Source: an uncultured Chloroflexia bacterium
GTDB taxonomy: Bacteria; Chloroflexota; Anaerolineae; Promineifilales; UBA4811
DNA length: 64,000 bases
NCBI GenBank assembly: GCA_963695825.1
Contig: CAVOHX010000031.1
Coordinates: forward strand, 19,538 to 83,537
Direction: 5' to 3'
Position numbers and translations under genes: made by a program. Position 1 is the stretch's first letter, and each line of letters begins with the position of its first letter. Below the pieces are notes generated by a model, which was given only the letters and a program-made list of their open reading frames with translations, ran no database searches and was not told the DNA's origin. Shown here one piece after another: positions 42,032 through 64,000 of this stretch.

Positions 42032-44712
42032 ATGAATCAAGACCGACGGACAAGGGACCATTTTGGCGCGCGCGCCACGTTGCGGACACTAGGCGGATCG
42101 GTGATCTATTATCGACTCGGTCGTCTGGCGGACGCAACCGGGGTGGACCTGTCGCGATTGCCGTACTCGATCCGTGTGCTGCTCGAAGCGGTGTTGCGCG
42201 AGGGGGACGGCGACACGATCACGAGTCGGGATGCCGAGAACCTGGCACGATGGGACCCGGCCCACTATGTGGCTCACGAGCTGCCGTTCAAGCCGGCCCG
42301 GGTTCTGCTGCAGGATTTCACGGGTGTGCCGGCGGTGGTGGACCTGGCGGCGCTGCGGTCCGCCATGAACCGGTTGGGGGGCGACCCCGGCCGCATCAAC
42401 CCCCAGATACCGGTGGACCTGGTGATCGATCACTCGGTCCAGGTGGACCGCTTTGGCTCGCGTTTCGCCCTGTTGTTCAACGCCGAGCGCGAGTTTGAGC
42501 GCAATCGGGAGCGCTACGAGTTCCTGCGCTGGGGGCAGACCGCCCTGGATAATTTCCGCGTCGTCCCGCCCGCCACGGGCATCGTCCACCAGGTGAACCT
42601 CGAATACCTGGCCCGGGTAGTGCAGACCCGCCAGCAGGACGGCGAGCGTGGTCGCATTGCCCGATTCGCTGGTGGGGACCGATTCTCACACCACCATGAT
42701 CAACGGGCTGGGCGTCCTTGGCTGGGGTGTGGGCGGCATCGAAGCCGAGGCGGTGATGTTGGGCCAACCCATCTATATGCTGACGCCCCAGGTGGTCGGC
42801 TTTCGGTTGACCGGCGAATTGCCCGAGGGCGCGACCGCCACTGACCTGGTATTGACTGCTACCCAGGTGCTCCGCGCCAAAGGGGTGGTGGGCAAGTTTG
42901 TCGAGTATTACGGATCCGGGGTGAGCACGCTGGCGCTAGCCGATCGGGCGACGCTGGCCAACATGTCACCCGAATATGGCGCTACCGTGGGCTATTTCCC
43001 GGTGGACGACGTCACGCTCGAGTACCTGCGGGTGACCGGCCGGGGCGCAGAACTGGTCGATCTGGTAGAGAGGTACACCAAGGAGCAAGGGTTGTTCCGC
43101 CGCGATGACGCGCCGGAACCGGTCTACAGTGAGGGGTTGGAGCTGGATCTGAGCACCGTGGAGCCGAGCCTGGCGGGCCCCAAACGCCCGCAGGACCGGA
43201 TTGCGCTGCGCGAGATGAAGCGCTCGTTCCAGGTCACGCTGCAAGAGGGGTATGGGAGGACGGCTGCACGGCCGGCATGGATTGACTGACGGCGCGGTGG
43301 TCATTGCTGCCATCACCAGTTGCACCAACACCTCAAACCCATCGGTCATGATCGGCGCTGGCTTGTTGGCGAAAAAGGCGGTTGAATTGGGGCTAAAGGT
43401 GCCGTCCTACGTCAAGACCAGCCTTGCCCCTGGCTCCAAGGTGGTGACGCGTTACCTGGAGAACCTGGAGCTGATGCCCTACTTGCAGGCGTTGGGTTTC
43501 CACGTTGTGGGATATGGCTGCACCTCGTGCATTGGCAACAGCGGTCCATTGCCGGCCGAGGTTGCGGCGGCCGTGCGTGATGGGGACCTGGTGGTGGCTT
43601 CGGTGTTGAGCGGCAACCGAAACTTTGAAGGTCGCGTCCATCCGCTGACGCGGGTTAACTACCTGGCCTCGCCTCCCCTGGTGGTCGCCTATGCACTTGC
43701 CGGTACTGTAAACATCGATCTGCCGAACGAGCCGATCGGTTTTGATCCCAACGAGCAGCCGGTCTTGCTGCAGGACATCTGGCCCACATCGGACGAAATC
43801 CGGGAGGCCATGAATCGGGCGGTCTCGGCCGAGTTGTATGCGACCGAGTACCGCGATGTGTTCAGAGGGGACGAGACCTGGAACCAGATTGCAGTTCCAG
43901 AGGGCGACCTCTATCGCTGGGATTCCGCCTCCACCTATATTCAGGAGCCGCCGTTCTTTCTCCACCTGACACGGGAAGAACCCCCGGTCGCGCCGATCAA
44001 AGGGGCGCGGGTTCTGGCGCTGCTCGGCGATTCGGTTACCACCGACCACATCTCCCCGGCCGGGTCGATACCCGCCGATGGCCCCGCCGGCCGCTATCTG
44101 ATCGAACACGGGGTTGAGCGGAGCGAGTTCAACTCTTTTGGCTCGCGCCGGGGCAACCACGAGGTGATGATGCGAGGTACTTTTGCCAACATTCGGCTGC
44201 GCAACCAACTAGTTCCCGGAAGCGAGGGAGGCGTGCACCATTCATCACCCCACCGGCGAACGTATGAGCATCTACGAGGCGGCGATGCGCTACCAGGAGG
44301 CCGGCACGCCGCTCATCGTGATCGCCGGCAAGGAATACGGCACCGGAAGCTCGCGCGACTGGGCTGCCAAAGGCACGGTCTGCTGGGCGTCAAGGCGGTG
44401 ATCGCCGAGAGCTATGAGCGCATTCATCGCAGCAATCTGGTGGGGATGGGCGTCTTGCCGCTGCAATTCCTGCCGGGCGAGAACGCCGCCAGCCTGAACC
44501 TGACCGGGTTCGAAACCTATAACCTGGAAGGGGTTGACGATACGTTGCAGCCCCTACAAGAGCTGACGGTGGTCTGTAGCGACGAGCAGCGGAATGTCAA
44601 GCGCTTTGTGACCACGGTTCGTATCGACTCGCCGGTAGAGGTAGATTACTATCGAAACGGCGGCGTGTTGCACACCGTGCTGCGCAGGATGGCGACCGAC
44701 GCGACGGGGTAG
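42032..44712 (+). pseudogene. acnA: Aconitate hydratase A, at least 4 frameshifts as assembled
   Basis: Motifs [63 protein letters not shown] and [16 protein letters not shown] are present. The pieces 42023-42844, 42648-43289 and 43252-44712 join, and a compensating pair of shifts lies at about 44230-44390. Confidence 0.9.
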
Positions 44713-44768: not shown

Positions 44769-45809
44769 GGCCAATAGCTACAGATATCGCGCTCGCATCG
44801 CGGCCAGACACCGACCGTCAACTCGAGAGCCCGTTCCGCTTGCTCGACGGTAAGGGTACCGAGACCGCAAGCGGGGGTGATCAACGCCGACTGGAGCAAG
44901 TCGTCCAATGGGATGCCCTTGCGCACCAGCAGGTTCATCCCCTCATGCAGCCGTTCCACCAGGCTGTCCACCGTCTCGCTCTGAACCGCCGGACTGTTGG
45001 GCACGATGCCCCAGGCGATGATTCCGCCGCCGCGCGATAAAGGCGCGCACGTCTTTTGGGTACAGCGCGAGGTTGTGGGCATATTCGTAGGCGTCCAGGC
45101 TGAGGATATCGACAGAAGTGTCCAGCAGTATGGACCAGTCGGTGTTGCCACAGCAGTGGACTCCCTTGAGTCCCTGCACGCCGGCCAGTACCTCCTCCAT
45201 CAGGGTAATCACCTGGTCCCGGGCGATAGCCACGTAGGCAGAGCCAAAGCTAGCCATGTAGGGTTCGTCGATAAAGATGATCGTCTCTGGATGCACCTGA
45301 CGCAGTTGCTGCTCCTGCCAACTGGCCTTGAGACGCAAATGGCGGGTGATGGCGTCAGCCAGCACCTCTTCATACAAGGTCGGACGGCGGTTCTGGTCGG
45401 TGACGACCAAGCCCCAACTGACGGGTCCGGTGACCTGGCCCTTGATGGCCCGCGCCCGGGCCACGCGATCGGCCGGCAGCGTCGCCAGGCCGGTGGCGTA
45501 TTCCGGCCCAAATTCCCCATAGCCCAGGTCTTCTTCCAGGTAGGCGGTGTAGAGACCCTCCAGCGCCGGGTCCAGGTCCTGCTCGCGATCCACCCAGATA
45601 CGCTCCTCCTCAAGATCGAGCACCACGCCAGGGAAGCGTTCGCTGTACTGGACGTACATGTTCTCGAAAAAGGCACGGCGAGGAAGTTGGGGCCAGGCAG
45701 GGATATCAGGGACGCGCGCCAGGATCAGTTCCCAGGCGGCGTGTACGTCGCGATGAGGCAGGCTGCCGATGGTCATCGGCAAAAGATCCGGTCGAAAGGT
45801 CATGGTCAT
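44762..45809 (-). pseudogene. Cobalamin-independent methionine synthase (MetE C-terminal / UROD-like fold) family protein, at least 1 frameshift as assembled
   Basis: Starts MTMTFRPDLLPMTIGSLPH, with HCCGNTDW and ITPACGLG motifs. ORFs 44943-46430 (3' part) and 44762-45151 join near 45040. The ATG at 45809 overlaps the reconstructed rdgB stop (ATGA). Confidence 0.6.
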
Positions 45810-46424
45810 TCCTCTCCGGTCCCATGGACTCCTGTCAGGAGCTGCAGGATGAGCGGCCGGGCAGCCATGGCGGCGCGGGCCGCGGTGGCTGATCTGGTTC
45901 TTTTCCCCATCCACCAGTTGGGCCATGGTGCGCCCGCAGTTCGGTAGGTAGAAAACCGGGTCGTAGCCAAAGCCATTGTCGCCGGCCGCCTCCAGGGCGA
46001 TGATTCCCTCGCAGGCGCCCTCGGCGGTGAGGGTCAGGCCTTCCGGAGTGGCGAGGGCAATGACGCAACGAAAGCGGGCTGTGCGCTTCTCCCAGGGGAC
46101 CCCATCCAGCTCTTGCAGCAAACGCCGCCAGCGATCGGCATCGCCCAACCCCGGGCCGCCATAGCGCGCCGAGCGGACGCCCGGCCGGCCGCCCAATGCA
46201 TCCACCTCGAGCCCGGAATCGTCTGCCAGTGTCAGACGATTGCTGGCGTTGGCGAACGCCAGCGCCTTGAGTTGGGCATTTTCTTGATAGGTCTCTCCCG
46301 ACTCGTCTACCTCGACGTTGAGCTCAAGCTCGGCTGGACCGACGCATTGGACCGGCAGGCCGGCAAGCAGGTGGTCGTATTCGCGTACCTTGCCCGGGTT
46401 ACCGGTGGCAATCAGCAGATCCAT
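45806..46424 (-). pseudogene. rdgB: dITP/XTP pyrophosphatase RdgB (HAM1 family), frameshift near the 3' end as assembled
   Basis: Starts MDLLIATGNPGKVREY, with FGYDPVF and ISHRG motifs. One indel near 45870 fuses it in silico to the next gene; the corrected frame ends at TGA 45808-45806. Confidence 0.8.
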
Positions 46425-46614
46425 GGTCACCTATTCCTGGGTTGCAGACCGGGCCAATTATACCAAGTCCGCCATTGCGGCACAGGGGAGGCGGCGGTAC
46501 GCCGCCTGTTTCCCCCGCTTGCGCCACGGCAGCTTGACTTTTTCCCTGCCCGGTAAAATTCCAGGGTGCAAATGACACCCTGCAGATCCCACGAGCAAGG
46601 AGACTGAACCCAAG

Positions 46615-50110: not shown

Positions 50111-51281
50111 ATGGGCATGAGAAAAGTTGCAGTTGTTGGGGCGGGTATGACGAAATTCGTCCGCCGGGCGCAAGAGACGGGCAAGGAGCTTTCCTGGCAG
50201 GCGACCCACATGGCGCTGGAATCCTGCGAAATGACCATGGATGACATCGAGGCGGTCTGCATGGGCACCGCCCCCGACGCCTTCGATGGCGTTCACATGA
50301 ACGGTGAGTACCTGAGCGACGGAGCCGGGGCCTGGAGCAAGCCCTATATGCGCTCCTACGTGGGTGGCGGGACGGGCGTCTTCGCCCCCATCCAGGGCTG
50401 GTATCACGTCGCCTCGGGTCTGTTTGAACCTGCCTGGTGGTGTGTGAGGAGAAAATGTCCAGCTATTATCCCGCACGCGCAGGCTGCTTTTGTGACCATC
50501 TTCGACCACACTACCGAACGGCCGCTAAGCCCAACCTGTTGTGGATCTTCGCCATGGAGATGAATCGGTACATGCAGACCTATGGCATCTCCAAGGAGGA
50601 TATCGCCCAGGTTTCGGTCAACACAAGCGCAACGCGGCCGACCATCCGTGTGCGCCGTTGCCTGGGGGATGCCAATATCACGCGTGGAGGACGTGCTGAA
50701 CTCTGAGGTGCTTGCCTGGCCGGTGCAGCCGGTTGGACGTCAGCCCGGTCAGCGATGGCGCGGTGGCCATCGTGCTGGCCGCCGAGCACGTAGCCAAGCG
50801 GATCACCGACAAGCCGGTCTGGATCCAGGGCGTCGGTTGGAATCTGGACACCGCCTACTGGACCAACCGAGATTTGGCCTATCCGCGCTATGTCGAATAC
50901 GCGGCTCGTATGGCCTACGATATGGCGGGCATCAAAGAGCCGCGCAAAGAGATCCACATCGCGAGCCCTATGATCCCTTTGATTACAAGGCGCTGCACCA
51001 CCTGGAAGGTTTGCAGTTGGCAGATCGTGGGCAGGCCCCTCAGCTGTACACGCGATGGCGTGGCGGCGAGGGATGGCGACATGCCGGTCTGCCCCTCGGG
51101 CGGGCTGCTGGGGGTGGGCAACCCCATCGCTGCTGCCGGCTTGATGAAGATCGCCGAACTCTTCTGGCAGTTGCGCGGCGAGGCGGGCGCGCGGCAGGTG
51201 CCCGGACAGCCCAAACGTGGCCTGGCACAGGCCTGGGGTGACCTGATGCAGGTCGGCACGGTAGTGATCATGGGTCGGTGA
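50111..51281 (+). pseudogene. SCP-x/Ltp-type thiolase-like protein 2, several frameshifts as assembled
   Basis: KVAVVGAGMTKF, EMNRYMQTYGISKEDIAQVSV, VCPSGGLLGVGNP and LFWQLRGEAG are recovered from the pieces 50111-50563, 50437-50706 and 50712-51281. Confidence 0.75.
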
Positions 51282-52582: not shown

Positions 52583-53223
52583 ATGGCCGACGTTTTTCAA
52601 AAGATCGCTAGCAAGCTGTACGACGGAGAGGACCAAGAGGTCGCCGAGTTGGTGCGAGAGGCGCTGGACCAAGGAGTCGCACCCCGAGGAGATCCTAGCC
52701 AATGGCCTGATCGCTGGCATGGACGAGGTGGGACGCGATTTCAAGGCCGGTGACCTCTTTGTGCCCGAGGTGCTGATCGCCGCGCGGGCCATGCACGCCG
52801 GGATGAACATCCTGCGGCCGCTGCTGGCCGAGAGCGAGCGTGCCGAGCGCCGGCAAGTACGTGATCGGCACCGTCAAGGGTGACCTGCACGACATTGGCA
52901 AGAACCTGGTCAGGATGATGCTGGAGGGCGCCGGTTTCGAGACGATCGACCTGGGCACCGACGTGGAGCCGCAGGCGTTTGTCGAGGCCGTGCGCGAGCA
53001 CCAGCCCGACAGCTGATCGGGATGAGCGCGCTGCTGACCACGACGATGGTCAGTATGGGCACACCATCGAGGCGCTTGGAAGAAGCCGGGCTGCGTCGAC
53101 TCGGTCAAGATCATGATCGGCGGGGCACCGGTGACGGCGGCCTTTGCCGAGGAGATCGGCGCCGATGCCTATGCGCCCGATGCGGCCACGGCCGTGGATG
53201 TGGCCCGCGAGCTGGCGGGCTGA
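52583..53223 (+). pseudogene. Methyltransferase cognate corrinoid protein (B12-binding cap + Rossmann domain), about 3 frameshifts as assembled
   Basis: Cap region ILANGLIAGMDEVGRDFKAGDLFVPEVLIAARAM and the DxHxxG motif in GTVKGDLHDIGKNLV, then MSALLTTTM and IMIGGAPVT. An alternative ATG is at 52577. The pieces span all three frames. Confidence 0.8.
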
Positions 53224-54783: not shown

Positions 54784-56256
54784 ATGACAAAACAGATTCC
54801 CATCTCAACTAGCGCCCGTGCTGCAGATGCTATCGGAAGAGCAGGTCCAGGCGATCCACATGCCAGCCTGGACATCCTGGCGCAGACCGGCCTGGTGATG
54901 AAGAATCAGGTGGGCCGGGAGTTTTGCTGGACGCCGGTGCGTGGGAGTCGGAGCGGCCTCCGGCTGCGGTCGGGCGATCCGTCGTATCAAGATCCCCGAA
55001 TTCATGGTCATGGACGCGATCGCCTCCGCTCCTACGCGCATCCCAATGTTCAACCGGCTGGGCGAGCCGATGATGCCGCTGGAATCGGGGCAAGGTCTTT
55101 TTCGGGCCCGGCTCGGATTGTATCTTTACCATGGATGTCGAGACCGGAGAACGGCGTATGGCGACGGCGCTGGACATCCAGCGCATTGCGCATCTGTGCG
55201 ACGGCCTGGGGCAAATCGACTTTATCATGTCGATGGGCAATCCATCGGACGTGCTGGCGCTCGATATCTATGTGCACGAATTCGTCAGCATGATCCGGGG
55301 GTCGGTCAAGCCCAACATCTATACGGCCAATAACCGGGCGGACATGGAGGCGATCTACCAGATTGCCTCTGCGGTGGCAGGCGGGGAAACCAAGCTGCGC
55401 GAAAAGCCCTTTATGATGCTGTATGCCGAGAGCATTTCGCCGCTTCTCTACCCTGGCGAATCGGTGGACAAGCTGCTCTTTTGCGCCGAGATGGGCATCC
55501 CAGTCACCTATCCCCCTTCGCCAAACACGGGAGGCGGCGGGCCAATCACGCTGGCGGGTGCGCTGGCGCTGGGCAACGCCGAGTGCCTGGTTGGACTGGT
55601 GCTCGCCCAGTTGGTTCGTCCGGGCACGCCGTTTCTCTATGGTATGAACACGGCCGCTCTGGACATGAAGTCGGCCATCGTGAGCTATGGCGCGCCCGAG
55701 TGGCCCACCGGCATGGCGGCCTGGTGCGACCTGGCGCGGTTCTACGATCTGCCCACCTGGGGCGCGGCCGGCGCGACTGACAGCAAGGTCGTGGATGCCC
55801 AGGCCGGGATCGAAGCCTCGATCTCGATCATGACCGCCTTTTTGACGCGCTGCAACCTGGTGCACGACGTGGGCTATATCGAGTATGGCACCACCTCGTC
55901 CATGGAAATGCTGGTGGTGGCAGATGAGATCATCCGCGACGTCCGGTTCGTCATGGAGGGGGTTGAGGTGAGCGAGCGGACGCTGGCCCGGGATGCGATT
56001 CACAGGGCCAAACCGGGCGGGGGCTTTTTGGCCGACGACCACACGCTGGACAATTGGAAGTGGGCGCAATGGCGGCCGGAGCTCATCGAGCCGCGACCGC
56101 TATGACCGTTGGGTCAAGCGCGGAAGCCAGGACATGACTGCGCGAGCGAATGCCCGCGCTCGCGAGATCCTATCCGAGCACCAGGTGCCCCCGCTCTCCG
56201 GGGATGCCGAGCGGGTCATCGCCGAGGTATTGAAACAGCGCGCCGCCAACGGCTAG
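54784..56256 (+). pseudogene. MttB-superfamily protein 2, no pyrrolysine codon, several frameshifts near the 5' and 3' ends as assembled
   Basis: The central 975 nt (ORF 55131-56105) are intact: MLYAESISPL, PNTGGGGPITLAG, GATDSKVVDAQAG, VVADEII. The N-terminus from the ATG at 54784 (AGAGGAGG upstream) and the C-terminal tail (ORF 55993-56256) are in other frames. Confidence 0.8.
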
Positions 56257-56305: not shown

Positions 56306-56412
56306 ATGGCGATGCGTCACCCAGGGGCGAGGTTGAACTTGCCGATACCTGTTCAATGGTGTACTGTGGTGACTGATCTGATTGACAAGAATCGAGGGCA
56401 AAGGAGCAGTTG

Positions 56413-57678
56413 ATGGCCAAATTGGAATACTCGAAGGAACCGGTGCATTCCGAGAACCGGCGGGCCGATGCCCGATTCCTTGATATGCAGCCGGCAACCC
56501 AATGCCTGCACGCTGGAGAACGGTGGGAAAAACAGCTCTTTTGGACCTCGAGCACACCGATCTACAACTCGACCACCTATTTCTATGACAGCGCCAGCGA
56601 TCTGGACGACCGGGTTTACTATCGCAAGCCAGGGTATGTCTACTCGCGTAGCGGGACGCCGACCAACACGGCGCTGGAACGGGCGCTGGCGACGTTGGAG
56701 AACGCCGAGGTGGCGCAGAGTTGCGCCTCGGGGATGGCAGCCAGCCATCTGGCGCTGCTAGCCGCCGGCGCGGGTCGGGAAGAGCTCATTCTCTGCTCGA
56801 GCGATGTCTATGGCAGCGTCTATACGATGGTGGAGAACATCTTCCCGCATCTGGGTGCTCGTAGCATCCTGATGGACTTTACCGATCTGGAGCGCGTGGA
56901 AGAGGCGATCCGAAAGGAGCGTCCCAAGGTCGTCTATTTCGAGGTGGTCACCAACCCGATGACCAAGGTGATCGATGCCCCGGCGGTCACCGAAATCGCC
57001 CACAGGTACGGCGCGACCGTGGTTGTGGACAATACGTTTACCACCCCCTATCTGATGCGGCCGTTCGAATACGGGGCGGACTATGTGACTCATAGCGTCA
57101 CCAAGTTCCTCGCCGGGCACGGCGACGTGCTGGCGGGGGCGGTTCTCTGTCGGCGCGAGGATTTTCACCGCCTGCACGACCTGTTTATCCAGGTCGGGTG
57201 TACGCTCGGGCCCAACGAGGCGTGGCTGGCGCTGAGGGGGATCAAGACCTTTACGTTGCGGATGGAGCGCCATTGCGCCAACGCCATGGAGGTGGCCCGC
57301 TTTCTAGAATCCCACTCTCTTGTCAAGCAGGTGCGCTATCCGGGCCTGGAGAGTCATCCACAGCACGGGACCGCCGGGCGTGTGTTCAGCGAGCGTCCTG
57401 GAGAGTACGGAGCGATGCTGAGCTTTGAGATCGCGGATTGCGACAAAGACAAGGCCTTTCGTTTTCTGGATGCGCTCAACGTGATCCTGCCCGCCACGAC
57501 CCTGGGCGACATCTACTCTCTGATCGTCAACCCGGCGCGCACGACCCATCACTGGCTCACCGAGGAGCAGTTGGCCGAGATTGGCGTTTATGCAGGCACC
57601 TTTCGCATGTCGGTCGGTGTGGAGCACGTCGATGACCTCAAGACCGACCTGGACCATGCCCTCCGTGCCAGTGAGTAG
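56413..57678 (+). CDS. Cys/Met-metabolism PLP-dependent enzyme (cystathionine gamma-synthase / methionine gamma-lyase / O-acylhomoserine sulfhydrylase family)
   Basis: Intact frame. The PLP lysine is in HSVTKFLAGHGD, with the family motif YSRSGTPT. AAGGAG lies 6 nt upstream of the ATG at 56413. Confidence 0.85.
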   Translation: MAKLEYSKEPVHSENRRADARFLDMQPATQCLHAGERWEKQLFWTSSTPIYNSTTYFYDSASDLDDRVYYRKPGYVYSRSGTPTNTALERALATLENAEVAQSCASGMAASHLALLAAGAGREELILCSSDVYGSVYTMVENIFPHLGARSILMDFTDLERVEEAIRKERPKVVYFEVVTNPMTKVIDAPAVTEIAHRYGATVVVDNTFTTPYLMRPFEYGADYVTHSVTKFLAGHGDVLAGAVLCRREDFHRLHDLFIQVGCTLGPNEAWLALRGIKTFTLRMERHCANAMEVARFLESHSLVKQVRYPGLESHPQHGTAGRVFSERPGEYGAMLSFEIADCDKDKAFRFLDALNVILPATTLGDIYSLIVNPARTTHHWLTEEQLAEIGVYAGTFRMSVGVEHVDDLKTDLDHALRASE

Positions 57679-57797: not shown

Positions 57798-58577
57798 ATG
57801 TATCAGAACCGAGACATGGGGATCAACCAGATCAAGGCCCGGAAGAATCACGTGTGTTATGGCATGGGGTTGGGCATTATCCTATTGGACGACGTCTATC
57901 CCGGATTTCCGGGTGACGTGCGCAACGCCAGCGCTTTTCCGTTCCCGATCCAATACGAGATTGCTGAGGGGGTGGACATCTGGGCCCTGGTGCAAGAAGA
58001 GGACAAGTCGCCGTGCCTGGCCCCGATCCAGCGGGCGGCGAAAAAGCTGGAGCGGATGGGTTGTCGCGGCATCGCGGCCGAGTGCGGCTATTTCGCCTAC
58101 TTTCAGCAGGACATCGCTGGCTATGTGGACGTACCTGTCTTTATGTCGAGTTTACTCCAGGTGCCCTTTGCCCAGCAGTTGATCGGGCCGAACAAGGTGG
58201 TGGGCATCTTGGCGGCCCGCGAGGACCGTCTCACTCAGGCTCACCTGGAGGCGGTAGGCGTCCGGCCGGGCAGCAACTATGTGATCACCGGCGCCGAGCA
58301 GGAGGTCGAGGAGTTTCAGCATCTCTGGTACGCTCCCAAGCGCACCGACCCACCGGGCGCCTTTTACGACAAGACGGAACGAGAGTTTGTCGGTCTCACC
58401 GTCGAGTTTTTCAACGCCCATCCCAACATGGGCGCCATGATGCTCGAGTGCACCGGCATGCAGCCGTTTGCGCGGGCGGTGCAGCGCGAGATCGACATCC
58501 CAGTCTTTAGCTGGGGCACCCTGCTCGATTTCGCCTACTCGGTCGTGGTGCACCGGGATTATTACGGGCACGTCTAG
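57798..58577 (+). CDS. Asp/Glu/hydantoin-racemase-fold family protein, 259 aa
   Basis: Intact frame. N-terminus [25 protein letters not shown] and two candidate catalytic Cys residues in EC motifs (AAEC96GYF, MLEC218TGM). AAGGAG lies upstream. The family assignment is from memory of similar unannotated racemase-family proteins. Confidence 0.6.
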
Positions 58578-60284: not shown

Positions 60285-61850
60285 ATGAGGGAGATACTAC
60301 TCGACGGCGAACACCTGACCCTGGAGCAGGTTGTGCTGGCGGCTCAGGACGTGAACGTCCGGGTGGGGTTGGCGCCTGAGGCGCGGCGAAAGGTAGACCG
60401 CGCGGCGCGAGCGGTGGATGATTTCATCGCGCGAGGGCAGACTGTCTATGGGATAACCACCGGCTTTGGGGCGTTCAAGGACCGGATCATCCCGCCAGAG
60501 CAGGTGGCGCAACTACAACGCAACATCCTCATGAGCCACGCAGTCGGCGTGGGGGAGCCGCTAGACGAGGCGGCGACCCGCGCCATGTTGCTGATACGCG
60601 CCAACGCGCTTGCCAAAGGGCATAGCGGCATTCGCATTAGCACCCTCGAGCTCTTGATCGAGATGCTGAATCGCGGCGTTCATCCGGTGGTGCCCAGTCA
60701 AGGGTCGTTGGGCGCCAGTGGTGATCTGGCGCCGCTGGCCCACATGTCGCTGCCCTTGATCGGCTTGGGAGAGGTTATCTATCAGGGGGAGTGTCTGACT
60801 GCCGCAGAAGCATTCCGGCGGGCCGGACTGAGCACGGTGACGTTGGCCGCCAAGGAGGGGCTGGCTCTGACCAACGGGACGGCCATGATGACGGCCGTCG
60901 GGGTGCTCAACGCCCATCAAGCCGAGAACCTGGCATGTGTGGCGGATGTGGCTGGCGCCATGAGCCTCGAGGCGCTGCACGGCACCACGCTCGCTTTTGA
61001 CCCTCGCATCCATGCAGTTCGGCCCCACCCGGGTCAGGTCCGGTCGGCGGCTGTCATGCTCCAGTTGCTCGACGGGAGCGCCTTGACCCGCGCCGCGGAC
61101 CCTCTCCACGTGCAGGATGCCTACACCCTGCGCTGCATCCCCCAGGTTCACGGCACAGCGCGGGATGCAGTCGCCTATGCGCGCTGGGTGTTGGAGGTAG
61201 AACTCAATTCGGCGACCGACAATCCGCTGATCTTTTTCGACGACGAGACCGGCGAGGCGACGGTCATTTCGGGCGGAAACTTTCACGGCGAGCCGCTGGC
61301 GACGGCAATGGATTATCTGGGGCTGGGGCTCACCGAGCTGGGCAACATCTCGGAACGACGGTTGACCCGTCTAACTGACGAGGCGAGCAATCAGGAGACG
61401 TTACCCGCCTTTCTCATCAAGCATGGGGGCCTCAACTCGGGCTTTATGTTGACCCAGTACACGGCCGCGGCGCTGGCTTCCGAGAACAAGGTGTTGGCGC
61501 ACCCGGCCAGTGCGGACACCATCCCCTCCTCGGCCAACATCGAGGATCACGTCAGCATGGGCCCGGCGGCCGCCATGCAGACCCGGCAAATCGCCGCCAA
61601 CGTGGAACGGATCCTGGCGCTGGAGCTTTTCGCGGCCGCCCAGGCGATCGATTTTCGCCGCGAGGCTCTGGGCGCTGACGCGTCATTGGGGGCCGGCACC
61701 GGACCTGCCTACAGGCTAATCCGGGAGAGTGTTCCTTTCCTGGAGCAGGACGACGTCATGTACCCCTATATCGAGGCAGTGCGGCAGCTGGTGGCCAGTG
61801 GTGAGATGGTGGCGGCCGTCAACCAGGCGCTTGCGAAAGGTTGTTGGTAG
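60285..61850 (+). CDS. hutH: Histidine ammonia-lyase (MIO-type aromatic amino acid lyase)
   Basis: Intact 521 aa. The MIO-forming triad is present in GSLGASGDLAPLAHM, with NGTAMM and the HAL-like length. Substrate specificity is inferred from the hutU neighbourhood. Confidence 0.85.
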   Translation: MREILLDGEHLTLEQVVLAAQDVNVRVGLAPEARRKVDRAARAVDDFIARGQTVYGITTGFGAFKDRIIPPEQVAQLQRNILMSHAVGVGEPLDEAATRAMLLIRANALAKGHSGIRISTLELLIEMLNRGVHPVVPSQGSLGASGDLAPLAHMSLPLIGLGEVIYQGECLTAAEAFRRAGLSTVTLAAKEGLALTNGTAMMTAVGVLNAHQAENLACVADVAGAMSLEALHGTTLAFDPRIHAVRPHPGQVRSAAVMLQLLDGSALTRAADPLHVQDAYTLRCIPQVHGTARDAVAYARWVLEVELNSATDNPLIFFDDETGEATVISGGNFHGEPLATAMDYLGLGLTELGNISERRLTRLTDEASNQETLPAFLIKHGGLNSGFMLTQYTAAALASENKVLAHPASADTIPSSANIEDHVSMGPAAAMQTRQIAANVERILALELFAAAQAIDFRREALGADASLGAGTGPAYRLIRESVPFLEQDDVMYPYIEAVRQLVASGEMVAAVNQALAKGCW

Positions 61851-62396
61851 ATGGAGAGCTGGAAGACGGTCGCCCGCAAGACGATACTGGACCACAGCAA
61901 GTATCTGAGGGTGGAGGAACACGCGGTGCAGTTGCCTGACGGCCGGGTCATCGAGAATTGGCCATGGGTGATCACGCCCGATTACGTCAACGTGGTGGCT
62001 CTGACAGAGGCGAGAGAGTTCATCCTCTTTCGCCAGGTCAAGTACGGGGTGGCGGGAGTCTCTTTGGCGCCAGTGGGTGGGTACCTGGAGCCAGGCGAGG
62101 ATCCGTTGGCGGCCGCCAAAAGGGAGACGCTTGAGGAGACAGGGTATGCGGCCGCCGAGTGGCAGAGTTTGGGGACCTATCGCGTGGGTGCCAACCGGGG
62201 TTTTGGAACTGCGCACTTTTTCCTCGCTCGGGGCGCCCGCCGAGTCGCCGAGCCAGACGCCGACGACCTGGAGGAGCAAGAGCTGTTGCTGCTCAGCCAG
62301 TTCGAGGTGGAACAGGCCTTGGCGGATGGAGCGTTCAAGGTGTTGGCCTGGGCGAGCGTCTTTGCGCTGGCGCTCCTGTTCGTGAAGCGAGGTTGA
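61851..62396 (+). CDS. Nudix hydrolase (ADP-ribose pyrophosphatase-like)
   Basis: Nudix box GGYLEPGEDPLAAAKRETLEETGY. The ATG directly abuts the hutH stop (TAGATG). Confidence 0.8.
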   Translation: MESWKTVARKTILDHSKYLRVEEHAVQLPDGRVIENWPWVITPDYVNVVALTEAREFILFRQVKYGVAGVSLAPVGGYLEPGEDPLAAAKRETLEETGYAAAEWQSLGTYRVGANRGFGTAHFFLARGARRVAEPDADDLEEQELLLLSQFEVEQALADGAFKVLAWASVFALALLFVKRG

Positions 62397-62422
62397 GCCG
62401 GCGGCCGGCAGACGGAGGAATA

Positions 62423-63844
62423 ATGCGCATCGTTGACCTGATCGTGGTCCCGGCGGTGGGGGGGTATTTTGTTGAAGATCTGACCGCGTTACAGGCCAGA
62501 TCGATTCCCATTCCCGAGCGCTATCAGGCCATCCCAGAGACGCCCGGTTTCCACGCCGTGCGTCAGGTGGCGCAGGGGGTTTCGGTGGGGCTGGTGCTTG
62601 AGGGATCATCAGGGGCCAGGGAGGTGGTCTGGGGGGACTGCGTCGCGGTGGCCTATAGCGGCAAGGCGGGGCGCTCGCCAGTTTTCCTGTCCAGCGACGG
62701 CTTAGCGACGATCCGGTCGGCCGTAGCGCCGCAACTGGTGGGCCAACAGGTCGCCGGTTTCCGCGAGATGGCGGCCGAGGTGGATGCGCTGACCGAGCAG
62801 GTCACTGTGACCCGGCCGTTGCCCGAGCCAGAGGCGGACGATGACGAGTTGTCGGTCACAGGGAGCATGTCGCGGCGCGACCTGCTGACGGCGCCGGCCC
62901 GCTTTTTCCGCGCCGTCCAGCGTGACCTGGAGGCCGCAGACGAACCCACGACCGAGCAGGTGGTCGTAGAGCGGCCGCTCCACACGGCGGTCCGATACGG
63001 CGTCAGCCAGGCACTACTGGCGGCGAGGGCCTTGGTCGAGAAGGTGACCATGGCCGAGGTGATAGTTCAAGAGTGGGGGCTCCCTCTCCCCACGGAGCCA
63101 GTGCCCATTCACGCCCAGTCGGGCGGCGAGCGGTACCACAACGCCGACAAGATGATCGCCCGCCGGGTTGCTTCGTTGCCCCACGCGCTGGTGGACGACA
63201 TCCCGGACCAGTTGGGCGTCGATGGAACCAAGCTGACCGCCTATGTGCGCTGGCTAGCAAAGCGGATCAGAGACCTGGGAGGAAGCGACTATGCGCCGAC
63301 CATCCACCTGGATGTGCACGGCGCGCTGGGCAAGCTCTTTGAAAACCAACTGGGCAAAATCCTGGGGCAGCTCTATGCGCTCGATCAGGCGGCAAATCCG
63401 TTCAAGTTGCGCATCGAGTGTCCCGTCATCATGGAGAGCCGAACGGCGCAGATCGAGACCATGTTCAAGCTGCGCGACTATGCCCGCTTTCGCAAGCTCA
63501 AGCTCCAGTTGGTGGCTGATGAATGGGCCAACACGTTGGAGGATATCCGCGCGTTTGTCGAGGCGGGGGCGGCCGACATGATCCAGGTCAAGATGCCTGA
63601 TCTGGGAAGCATTCATAACACAGTCGAGGCAGTTCTCCTCTGCCAGGACAATGGGGTCGGCGCCTTTTTGGGCGGCAGTTGCTGCGAGACCGATCTCTCG
63701 GCCCGCGTGTCGGTCCACGTGGCGCTGGCAACCCGGCCGGCGATATTGATGGCCAAGCCAGGGATGGGGGTGGATGAGGGGACAAGCATTGTGCAGAACG
63801 AGATGACGCGGACCCTGGCGTGGATTCAGGCGCGCGGTGGGTAG
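62423..63844 (+). CDS. Methylaspartate ammonia-lyase (enolase-superfamily 3-methylaspartase) with a ~60-aa insertion
   Basis: Intact 473 aa. Motifs HTAVRYGVSQALL, LPHAL, ADEWANTLEDI, IQVKMPDLGS and AKPGMGVDEG are colinear with clostridial MAL as I remember it. GGAGG lies upstream of the ATG at 62423. Confidence 0.85.
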   Translation: MRIVDLIVVPAVGGYFVEDLTALQARSIPIPERYQAIPETPGFHAVRQVAQGVSVGLVLEGSSGAREVVWGDCVAVAYSGKAGRSPVFLSSDGLATIRSAVAPQLVGQQVAGFREMAAEVDALTEQVTVTRPLPEPEADDDELSVTGSMSRRDLLTAPARFFRAVQRDLEAADEPTTEQVVVERPLHTAVRYGVSQALLAARALVEKVTMAEVIVQEWGLPLPTEPVPIHAQSGGERYHNADKMIARRVASLPHALVDDIPDQLGVDGTKLTAYVRWLAKRIRDLGGSDYAPTIHLDVHGALGKLFENQLGKILGQLYALDQAANPFKLRIECPVIMESRTAQIETMFKLRDYARFRKLKLQLVADEWANTLEDIRAFVEAGAADMIQVKMPDLGSIHNTVEAVLLCQDNGVGAFLGGSCCETDLSARVSVHVALATRPAILMAKPGMGVDEGTSIVQNEMTRTLAWIQARGG

Positions 63845-63923: not shown

Positions 63924-64000
63924 ATGAACTACCCAGACAGGCTCGAAAGAGATAGAAAAGAGGTTCGGGTGAAGTCAGTCTTTGTCAAGCAGTTGCAGGC
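63924..64000 (+). CDS. 5' end of an unidentified gene running off the window
   Basis: AGGGGGA lies about 9 nt upstream of the ATG at 63924, and the frame (MNYPDRLERDRKEVRVKSVFVKQLQ) is open to the window end. It is too short to classify. Confidence 0.3.
   Translation, partial: MNYPDRLERDRKEVRVKSVFVKQLQ

Follow-up and report, generated by a model that had tools for sequence, protein, structure and literature searches.

Methylaspartate ammonia-lyase-like proteins of uncultured Chloroflexota with a conserved Arg-Arg arm and an MttB-family gene neighbourhood

The MAL-like gene and its insertion

We analysed a 64,000-nucleotide stretch of contig CAVOHX010000031.1 (assembly GCA_963695825.1) from an uncultured Chloroflexia bacterium, called the window below. 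Near its end, the window carries a gene for a protein like the EC 4.3.1.2 enzyme methylaspartate ammonia-lyase (MAL), in which a segment of about 56-60 residues, termed here the arm, replaces a short turn of the characterised enzymes. The gene and the parts of the arm are listed below; the structural assignments are from a model by AlphaFold2 (AF2), with its predicted local distance difference test (pLDDT) scores.

62414-62419 (+): Shine-Dalgarno sequence GGAGGA, 3 nt 5' of the ATG, read directly from the sequence
62423-63844 (+): MAL-like gene, 473 aa, of the insert-bearing, catalytically intact kind (group A below); Pfam, TIGR01502, PDB match, AF2 and Foldseek
62791-62820 (+): copy 1 of a direct DNA repeat, GACCGAGCAGGT...CGGCCG, with copy 2 at 62950-62979
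62792-62818 (+): arm strand 1, aa 124-132, TEQVTVTRP; a DSSP strand in the AF2 model, pLDDT of the block about 88
62819-62869 (+): linker 1, aa 133-149/150, LPEPEADDDELSVTGSM; acidic and Pro-rich, variable among relatives in length and sequence, pLDDT <50 for aa 139-149
62870-62932 (+): conserved helix from Ser150-Arg151-Arg152, SRRDLLTAPARFFRAVQRDLE; AF2 helices 151-155 and 157-170, pLDDT 54-61
62933-62950 (+): linker 2, aa 171-176; pLDDT <50 for aa 171-173
62951-62977 (+): arm strand 2, aa 177-185, TEQVVVERP, followed by the canonical helix LHTAVRYG; AF2 strand, pLDDT about 92 from aa 181

The start codon was placed at the ATG at 62423, 26 nt past the stop codon of a Nudix gene. The resulting N-terminus, MRIVD, pairs with MKIVD of the clostridial MAL (PDB 1KCZ). 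A GTG at 62159, which opens a 561-aa frame in the list of open reading frames (ORFs), was rejected as the start; that frame overlaps the Nudix gene. The protein scored 336.9 bits against Pfam MAAL_C and 150.9 bits against MAAL_N, each with a cut-off of 27, and 448.8 bits against the equivalog-level model TIGR01502, with a cut-off of 286. The MAAL_N match was split in two pieces, and the TIGR01502 match fell in two stretches. A HMMER search against PDB sequences matched 1KCZ with E=1e-101, the best-scoring PDB sequence being 3ZVH, and identity to the characterised MALs of Clostridium tetanomorphum and Citrobacter amalonaticus was 37-39%. The AF2 model, built on a 98-sequence alignment, had a mean pLDDT of 88.8 and a predicted TM-score of 0.86. 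Its top Foldseek matches were 1KCZ, 3ZVI, 1KKO and 3ZVH, with TM-scores of 0.88-0.94 normalised to target length, and it contains the N-terminal capping domain and TIM barrel of the enolase superfamily. These matches, together with the catalytic residues described below, place the window protein within the MAL family.

Both 1KCZ and 3ZVH aligned by HMMER to aa 1-124 and 185-469 of the window protein. The intervening aa 125-184 (62795-62974) stand in place of V121-N124 of the C. tetanomorphum enzyme, a four-residue VNGN turn. An earlier note on this DNA had placed an insertion of about 60 residues at 62789-62968 (aa 123-182), and the PDB alignment bears this out to within 1-2 residues. Its pairing of the catalytic residues His194 and Lys331 with H254 and K390 was likewise correct. 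It had further described a single insertion with a constant offset of +59/60. We found instead that the offset is the sum of three changes: the main site adds about 56 residues, aa ~61-64 add another 4, and one residue is missing near aa 287.

The note had also called the insertion acidic. This holds for the window copy, which has 14 Asp/Glu against 7 Lys/Arg across the 64 residues at the site (net -7). However, among 194 group A relatives the net charge at the site had a median of 0 (range -10 to +5), so acidity is no family trait; what the relatives share is the basic helix with Ser-Arg-Arg. The site spans 39-73 aa in group A (median 57) and 8 in C. tetanomorphum.

The GC content at third codon positions (GC3) was 0.85 in the insert and 0.77 and 0.80 in its flanks, and both other frames contain stops. 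An independent Logan assembly, of run ERR12037370, encodes an identical 473-aa protein, which contradicts an origin by compensating indel errors, an objection that the note had raised against itself. All of the 120 best homologues align through the segment. These results indicate that the insertion is real and not an assembly artefact.

In the AF2 model, the arm is a beta-ribbon stalk bearing a loosely tethered short helix. Arm strand 2 aligns with MTVNGNRLHT of 1KCZ. The family consensus is E-x-V-x-V-x-R-P-L for strand 1 and T-E-x-V-x-V-E-R-x-L-H for strand 2, and the core motif in group A is G-[LM]-[ST]-R-R-[DE]-L-L-T-A-P-A-R-L-[LW]-R. R151 and R152 were invariant in the 98-sequence alignment, and among 190 motif-aligned group A sequences the Arg-Arg pair was 100% conserved. 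In a related group whose catalytic residues are lost (group B), 61 motif-aligned sequences had the first Arg in 100% and the second as Arg in 98% and Lys in 1%. The AF2 model of one such catalytically dead protein, P0156, showed the same order of strand, disorder, helix, disorder and strand. The linkers and helix had pLDDT of about 46-66 in models of both groups, and the monomer model gave no confident placement of the helix relative to the enzyme.

The two copies of the direct repeat encode the two arm strands. They lie 159 nt apart and are identical at 21 of 30 nt, the first 12 being exact. The strand repeat (TEQVTVTRPL / TEQVVVERPL) is present in the DNA itself and suggests that the arm may have started when some ten codons were duplicated. 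We also considered that the insert might derive from the helix after it, duplicated in tandem; beyond the strand repeat of about ten codons there was no convincing similarity, in a comparison made without profiles.

No second copy of the segment was found anywhere in the 64-kb window. Of 142 peptide matches in 1.83 Mb of related loci, 134 fell within MAL-like genes and the remaining 8 were at chance level. The segment had no Pfam match at E<=10, TAT_signal included. An intein was rejected, because about 56-60 aa is too short for splicing blocks, which need about 130 aa or more, and no Pfam domain was present. The core, S/T-R-R-D/E-L-L-T, is similar to the twin-arginine translocation (Tat) motif S/T-R-R-x-F-L-K. 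A functional Tat signal was rejected: the motif is internal (aa 150-156), a hydrophobic h-region and a cleavage site are lacking, charged or Pro-rich sequence follows, and TAT_signal gave no match. The resemblance most likely reflects a helix N-cap with two exposed arginines.

For C. amalonaticus MAL (CaMAL), molecular dynamics has shown gating by a helix-hairpin-loop subdomain (residues 12-51) and by the beta5-alpha2 loop (residues 70-85, holding Q73), at whose bottom H127-R131 lie (bioRxiv 10.1101/583088). Because the arm is rooted directly before the equivalent of H127-R131, it would emerge near the base of the active-site gate. The same loop holds an unrelated 43-aa insert without Arg-Arg in P0194, a 463-aa representative of a 50%-identity cluster with the canonical pocket pattern, so the loop tolerates independent insertions.

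Active-site residues and distribution of the clade

The catalytic and pocket residues were compared in 1KCZ numbering, with a reference sequence that was checked against the HMMER alignments, including the mutated positions of 3ZVH and 3ZVI. According to published work, Q73 (via water) and Q172 contact the substrate amino group, and F170, Y356 and L384 form the pocket for the 3-methyl group (PMC7241714). The codons at the positions concerned are as follows.

62651-62653 (+): Ala77, the Gln73 position (amine pocket); Ala in 83, Glu in 35 and Cys in 2 of 120 relatives, never Gln
63110-63112 (+): His230, the Phe170 position (3-methyl pocket); His in 120/120 long forms
63182-63184 (+): His254, catalytic His194; conserved in 120/120
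63590-63592 (+): Lys390, catalytic base Lys331; conserved in 120/120
63749-63751 (+): Met443, the Leu384 position (methyl pocket); Met in 118/120

The Mg2+ ligands D238, E273 and D307 correspond to D297, E332 and D366 of the window protein and were conserved in all 120 relatives. Q329 (Q388) and C361 (C420) were kept in 120/120 of the insert-bearing long forms, and Q172 (Q232) in 119. The Y356 position is Phe415 in the window protein and Phe in 116/120, and the clade shows further changes of T360 to Ser and C357 to Leu. Thus neither Gln73 nor the hydrophobic Phe170/Tyr356/Leu384 set expected of an EC 4.3.1.2 enzyme is present. Outside the insertion the note had found the enzyme canonical in appearance; this does not hold for the pocket, where Q73 is replaced by Ala and F170, Y356 and L384 by His, Phe and Met. 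All four glutamate-mutase-adjacent MALs in the collected loci had the canonical pattern Q-F-Q-H-Q-K-Y-(T/S)-C-L.

It has been reported that the engineered C. tetanomorphum MAL (CtMAL) Q73A accepts alkylamines and gives N-substituted aspartates, and that L384A accepts bulky 2-substituted fumarates (PMC7586795). The window protein shares with CtMAL Q73A (3ZVH) an Ala at the amine-pocket position. Here, however, the Ala occurs naturally, alongside the arm and the methyl-pocket changes; Glu takes its place in about 29% of the clade, and a corresponding activity is putative.

Two subtypes could be distinguished, Glu73 (L001, L009-L011, L013, L043) and Ala73 (L002, L004, L017-L023). Genes near the Glu73 subtype encode a HypA-like protein, a 442-aa protein of no known kind, PTE and a zinc-dependent alcohol dehydrogenase (Zn-ADH); near the Ala73 subtype are hutHU, Nudix and ATP-binding cassette (ABC) transporter-CBS genes, and the company of the two is only partly different. 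As they keep different neighbours, the split suggests two substrates or two pathways.

The 120 best homologues were 62-72% identical to the window protein and 446-492 aa long, and came from Chloroflexota or Anaerolineae where the source names a taxon. When one genome per GTDB species was scanned, the long form was found in about 59 species genomes, all of them Chloroflexota metagenome-assembled genomes (MAGs), from Anaerolineae/Anaerolineales, Ardenticatenales, Caldilineae and Thermoflexia, with some labelled Chloroflexia or Chloroflexota. Short forms (38-46% identity) belonged to other phyla. Collected sequences of at least 380 aa, counted as clusters, fell into three groups.

Group A: at least 194 clusters, insert present, catalytic residues intact
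Group B: at least 63 clusters, insert present, catalytic residues lost
Short group: 60 clusters, without insert, catalytic residues mostly intact

Among 1.84 billion 50%-identity cluster representatives, the catalytic long form accounted for 2-3 representatives, after which the score fell from 540 to 355 bits. About 42 more distant representatives had the insert, with the motif [IVF]-S-R-R-[DA]-[LI]-[FLI]-T-G-x-L.

In group B (for example P0127, P0128, P0152, P0156 and P0165; named members are from Chloroflexota), K331 is replaced mostly by Asp, Asn or Ser, H194 by Tyr, Q329 by His or Arg, Q172 by Glu or Asp, and D307 by Gly. An alignment of 40 group B sequences with 38% mean identity had only five invariant columns. 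The first Arg of the motif was one of them, and the Ser and the second Arg were nearly invariant. The Arg-Arg motif is thus more strictly kept than the catalytic residues in this group, which is likely to be a pseudoenzyme or adaptor family. Group B genes, in loci collected partly by a metagenome scan with a 12-sequence alignment, occupy the same operon slot as the long form, with the following gene orders.

L090, L091, L093: ABC transporter - CBS - group B MAL-like gene - MttB
L086: ABC - CBS - 338-aa protein of no known kind - group B MAL-like gene - aminotransferase - GcvT - DAO - DAO - MttB
L088: ABC - CBS - group B MAL-like gene - Zn-ADH

In a simple neighbour-joining tree without support values, from which the insert columns were excluded, groups A and B came together, with 2 exceptions, in a single clade that has 49 tips, and group A was monophyletic. 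As the insert-bearing sequences group together without the insert columns, a single origin of the insert is indicated, and the pattern fits an old, lineage-defining arm. This strongly supports the suggestion of the note that the insert marks a subfamily. The note had added that a segment common to a known MAL clade with ordinary activity would speak against its view; the segment is indeed clade-wide, but the clade has no characterised member.

Gene neighbourhoods of the long form

On the strand of the MAL-like gene, the window holds the following upstream genes, and a further gene is cut by its end.

52683-53214 (+): gene for a corrinoid (B12-binding) protein, broken by frameshifting over frames 3 and 1; tblastn with the corrinoid protein of L001
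53328-54768 (+): MttB-family gene broken across frames 3, 1, 2, 3 and 1; Pfam, tblastn
55005-56105 (+): MttB-family methyltransferase gene, spanning query residues ~68-430; Pfam MTTB, tblastn
56410-57678 (+): gene for a Cys/Met-metabolism pyridoxal phosphate enzyme
57798-58577 (+): Asp/Glu/hydantoin-racemase-superfamily gene; NF005679 / PRK07475
58601-60250 (+): hutU (urocanate hydratase); Pfam Urocanase N, Rossmann-like and C domains
60285-61850 (+): hutH (histidine ammonia-lyase family); Pfam Lyase_aromatic, E=1e-193
61851-62396 (+): Nudix hydrolase gene directly upstream of the MAL-like gene; Pfam NUDIX
63924-64000: gene cut by the window end, 80 nt past the MAL stop codon, beginning MNYPDRLERDRKEVRVKSVFVKQLQ...

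The MttB and corrinoid genes thus lie 6-10 kb upstream of the MAL-like gene on the same strand. A tblastn search (E<=1e-3) of the 64-kb window found no homologue of the glutamate mutase subunit GlmE. Pfam and tblastn confirm what the note had said of the neighbours, namely hutH, a Nudix gene and a corrinoid methyltransferase set with no adjacent glutamate mutase. The window ends 156 nt past the MAL stop codon, and the 25 visible codons of the downstream gene are unlike the MttB N-terminus of relatives. In the Logan contig this gene runs for at least 205 aa.

We examined 62 non-redundant long-form loci within +/-10 kb (some within +/-8), calling genes by tblastn with a fixed query set. An MttB-family gene was near the long-form MAL in 54 of them. 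Downstream sequence of at least 1.5 kb was available for 54 loci; in 34 of these, a same-strand MttB gene began less than 400 nt past the MAL-like gene. A CBS protein was found in 37 loci and a ferredoxin-like protein in 22; Zn-ADH, a Mo-hydroxylase large subunit and SBP_bac_5 (Dpp/Opp-type ABC transporter) were found in 20 each, and a racemase-like gene in 18. The closest relatives, L023 and L042, have the order Nudix-MAL-MttB. No GlmE was found in any of the 62 loci with the GlmE of L068-L070 as queries, GlmS and MutL queries also being used, while the positive controls L068-L070 and L118 were all matched. Divergent MAL paralogues that could serve as heteromer partners were absent beside the long-form gene in 85 loci and in the window.

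The MttB homologue adjacent to the long-form MAL scored 206 bits with MtgB (2QNE/9YCE) and 199 bits with MttB (7XCL), and fell under the cut-off for pyrrolysine-containing MttB. It is thus about equally distant from the glycine-betaine enzyme MtgB and the trimethylamine enzyme MttB. Compared with the known MttB-superfamily systems (MtgB, MtpB, MtcB, MtyB), the partner gene of the long-form MAL is a non-pyrrolysine MttB homologue with corrinoid genes near.

Several other features of these loci were observed. Of the 62 loci, 7 had the histidine catabolism genes hutU-hutH next to the long-form MAL (L017, L019, L020, L021, L023 and L052 among those named). The racemase-superfamily gene of the window, labelled "hypothetical", is ~80% identical to L002:8092-8877 and L004:9183-9962, the MAL-like gene being ~65% identical, and has no relative of solved structure. 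Other broken genes in the window (42648-44712, 50712-51281) are an aconitase in two overlapping ORFs and a thiolase-like gene of which only the C-terminal part is present. The broken genes are either assembly indels or pseudogenes; the MAL-like gene itself is intact. A 495-aa ORF at 44946-46430 (-) has a Ham1/ITPase domain at residues 5-184, and its remaining ~310 residues have no Pfam match. Short MAL-like genes with the pocket S73/Q170/S172/H329 (L065:172-5235; L066, L067, L074, L075) come mostly from Bdellovibrionota MAGs. Where neighbours are readable, they adjoin a betaine/carnitine/choline transporter (BCCT) gene, a 2-oxoglutarate-oxygenase-like gene and an aldehyde dehydrogenase gene, and they resemble a further MAL subfamily of non-canonical kind, with ties to metabolism of the betaine type.

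Possible functions of the arm and of the enzyme

The window gene and the characterised MALs (1KCZ, 1KKO/1KKR) share the two-domain enolase-superfamily fold and the catalytic and Mg2+ residues. The window branch differs in the arm that replaces the VNGN turn, in Q73A/F170H/Y356F/L384M, in an MttB and ABC-transporter context instead of glmS/glmE, and in its confinement to uncultured Chloroflexota. On balance we incline, with moderate confidence, to a combined reading in which the gene belongs to a Chloroflexota-specific, insert-bearing branch that is not a glutamate-mutase-coupled 3-methylaspartase and encodes a lyase or epimerase with a tethered arm. Given its changed pocket, the enzyme probably has a substrate other than 3-methylaspartate. 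It would be a C-N lyase for a compound that resembles aspartate but is N-substituted or modified in some other way, and that may be a product of the MttB demethylation step in methylated-amine catabolism or a supply to it. Alternatively it could act as a two-base epimerase, since both bases are kept. The arm would be a tethered short motif that is not part of the catalytic chemistry, its Arg-Arg pair docking into an acidic site on another polypeptide; the candidates are the second dimer subunit, MttB, its corrinoid protein and the CBS protein. The docking or regulatory role that the note had proposed is plausible. Protein-protein docking in particular, to which we give somewhat less than an even chance, is favoured by a motif that outlives the active site, by linkers of differing length and by a helix left unpacked in the monomer models.

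Several points weigh against this combined reading. The clade consists of uncultured genomes only and has no characterised member, and since the TIGR01502 equivalog cut-off is passed, true methylaspartase activity keeps some probability. The low pLDDT of the arm suits a docking motif and a mobile lid alike, and the insertion site adjoins the base of the CaMAL gating loop, which favours a gating role. In the window, the gene directly after the MAL-like gene is not MttB, and the MttB and corrinoid genes are frameshifted, through assembly errors or as pseudogenes. A glutamate mutase may also sit elsewhere in the genome; the search covered the window and the long-form loci.

The arm could instead be an active-site lid or substrate-contact element, in which the Arg-Arg helix over the barrel entrance binds an extra anionic group of a larger substrate or gates together with the residue-73 loop. 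The root of the insertion directly before LHTAVRYG, the helix whose CaMAL residues H127-R131 underlie the gating loop, is in keeping with this, as are the flexible linkers and low pLDDT, which match a mobile element, and the changed pocket residue under the gating loop. However, Ser-Arg-Arg is equally strict in relatives without K331, H194, Q329 and D307, and a lid with no role beyond catalysis would be expected to degenerate once the active site is lost, unless the dead relatives still bind the ligand. A span of 39-73 aa is also unusual for a precisely placed lid, and we consider such a role unlikely, though not negligibly so. It is less probable still that the protein is an ordinary 3-methylaspartate ammonia-lyase with a long loop, with glutamate mutase elsewhere and an MttB context that is coincidental in genomes rich in MttB paralogues. 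The equivalog score, the MAL label of relatives in database sources, the full set of catalytic residues and the 43-aa insert of the canonical-pattern P0194 at the same loop are in its favour. Moreover, GlmE is in the flanks of only 4 of about 9 canonical-pattern loci, so that its adjacency is not obligatory. Nevertheless, 4 of 10 pocket residues differ clade-wide, both specificity pockets included; GlmE is in 0/62 loci and MttB in 54/62, in most cases directly following in the same orientation. The invariant Arg-Arg speaks against neutral loop expansion, and a catalytically dead sister group occupies the same operon slot.

An origin of the segment as a compensating-indel artefact is effectively excluded, and so is a mobile or repeat element inserted in frame, for instance a mini-intein or a sequence like a miniature inverted-repeat transposable element. 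Frameshift-broken genes do occur in the window, an imperfect 30-nt direct repeat flanks the segment, and its core (S-R-R-x-L-L) resembles a twin-arginine motif. Against this stand the identical protein in the second assembly, GC3 and stop patterns that suit the frame, the alignment of the segment, with its flanks conserved, across more than 190 homologue clusters, its single copy in the window, and matches in related loci that beyond chance level are confined to MAL-like genes.

Coming back to the reading of a modified-aspartate enzyme with a docking arm, a precedent for enolase-superfamily action on a quaternary amine is hydroxyproline-betaine 2-epimerase, which has a role in betaine catabolism. 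This epimerase family exists in the enolase superfamily (bioRxiv 10.1101/2022.03.03.481873). The comparison is an analogy only, as the subgroup and catalytic residues differ, there is no MAL-type insert and the demethylases are not of the MttB type. A full-text literature search found no paper joining MAL-like genes to MttB systems or Anaerolineae, and none for the enolase superfamily with such an insertion. Support was not obtained for hercynine/ergothioneine, nicotinate/trigonelline or hydantoin-propionate pathway ideas, and these are not claimed. In a more far-reaching and doubtful version, the genes would form an undescribed Chloroflexota system for methylated (quaternary) amines, in which the catalytic form acts by cleavage or epimerisation on an N-alkylated intermediate that resembles aspartate, the arm docks to the MttB, corrinoid or CBS protein, and the dead sisters serve as adaptors.

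Because Gln73, the Phe/Tyr/Leu pocket and, in the loci searched, the coupling to glutamate mutase are all lacking, an assay should precede any assignment of the window protein to EC 4.3.1.2, despite its TIGR01502 score. The automatic label "methylaspartate ammonia-lyase", and a methylaspartate pathway inferred from such genes, are probably wrong. MAL is a workhorse for unnatural amino acids, and the engineered Q73A opened its amine scope. Hundreds of natural Ala73/Glu73 variants, whose alkyl pocket is remodelled as well, could be put to use as new catalysts of the C-N lyase type and, if the adaptor and docking system is true, would be ready-made biocatalysts for N-substituted aspartates. The catalytic and dead forms would make an unusual pseudoenzyme pair sharing a conserved arm, and arm mutation may give a handle on the partner and the pathway. 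For the Anaerolineae-type Chloroflexota, whose collected host genomes are metagenome assemblies only, the strict link to MttB and an ABC transporter, with glutamate mutase absent from the loci, suggests that a step of methylated-amine or osmolyte catabolism has gone unrecognised; a new step in methylated-amine catabolism is probable.

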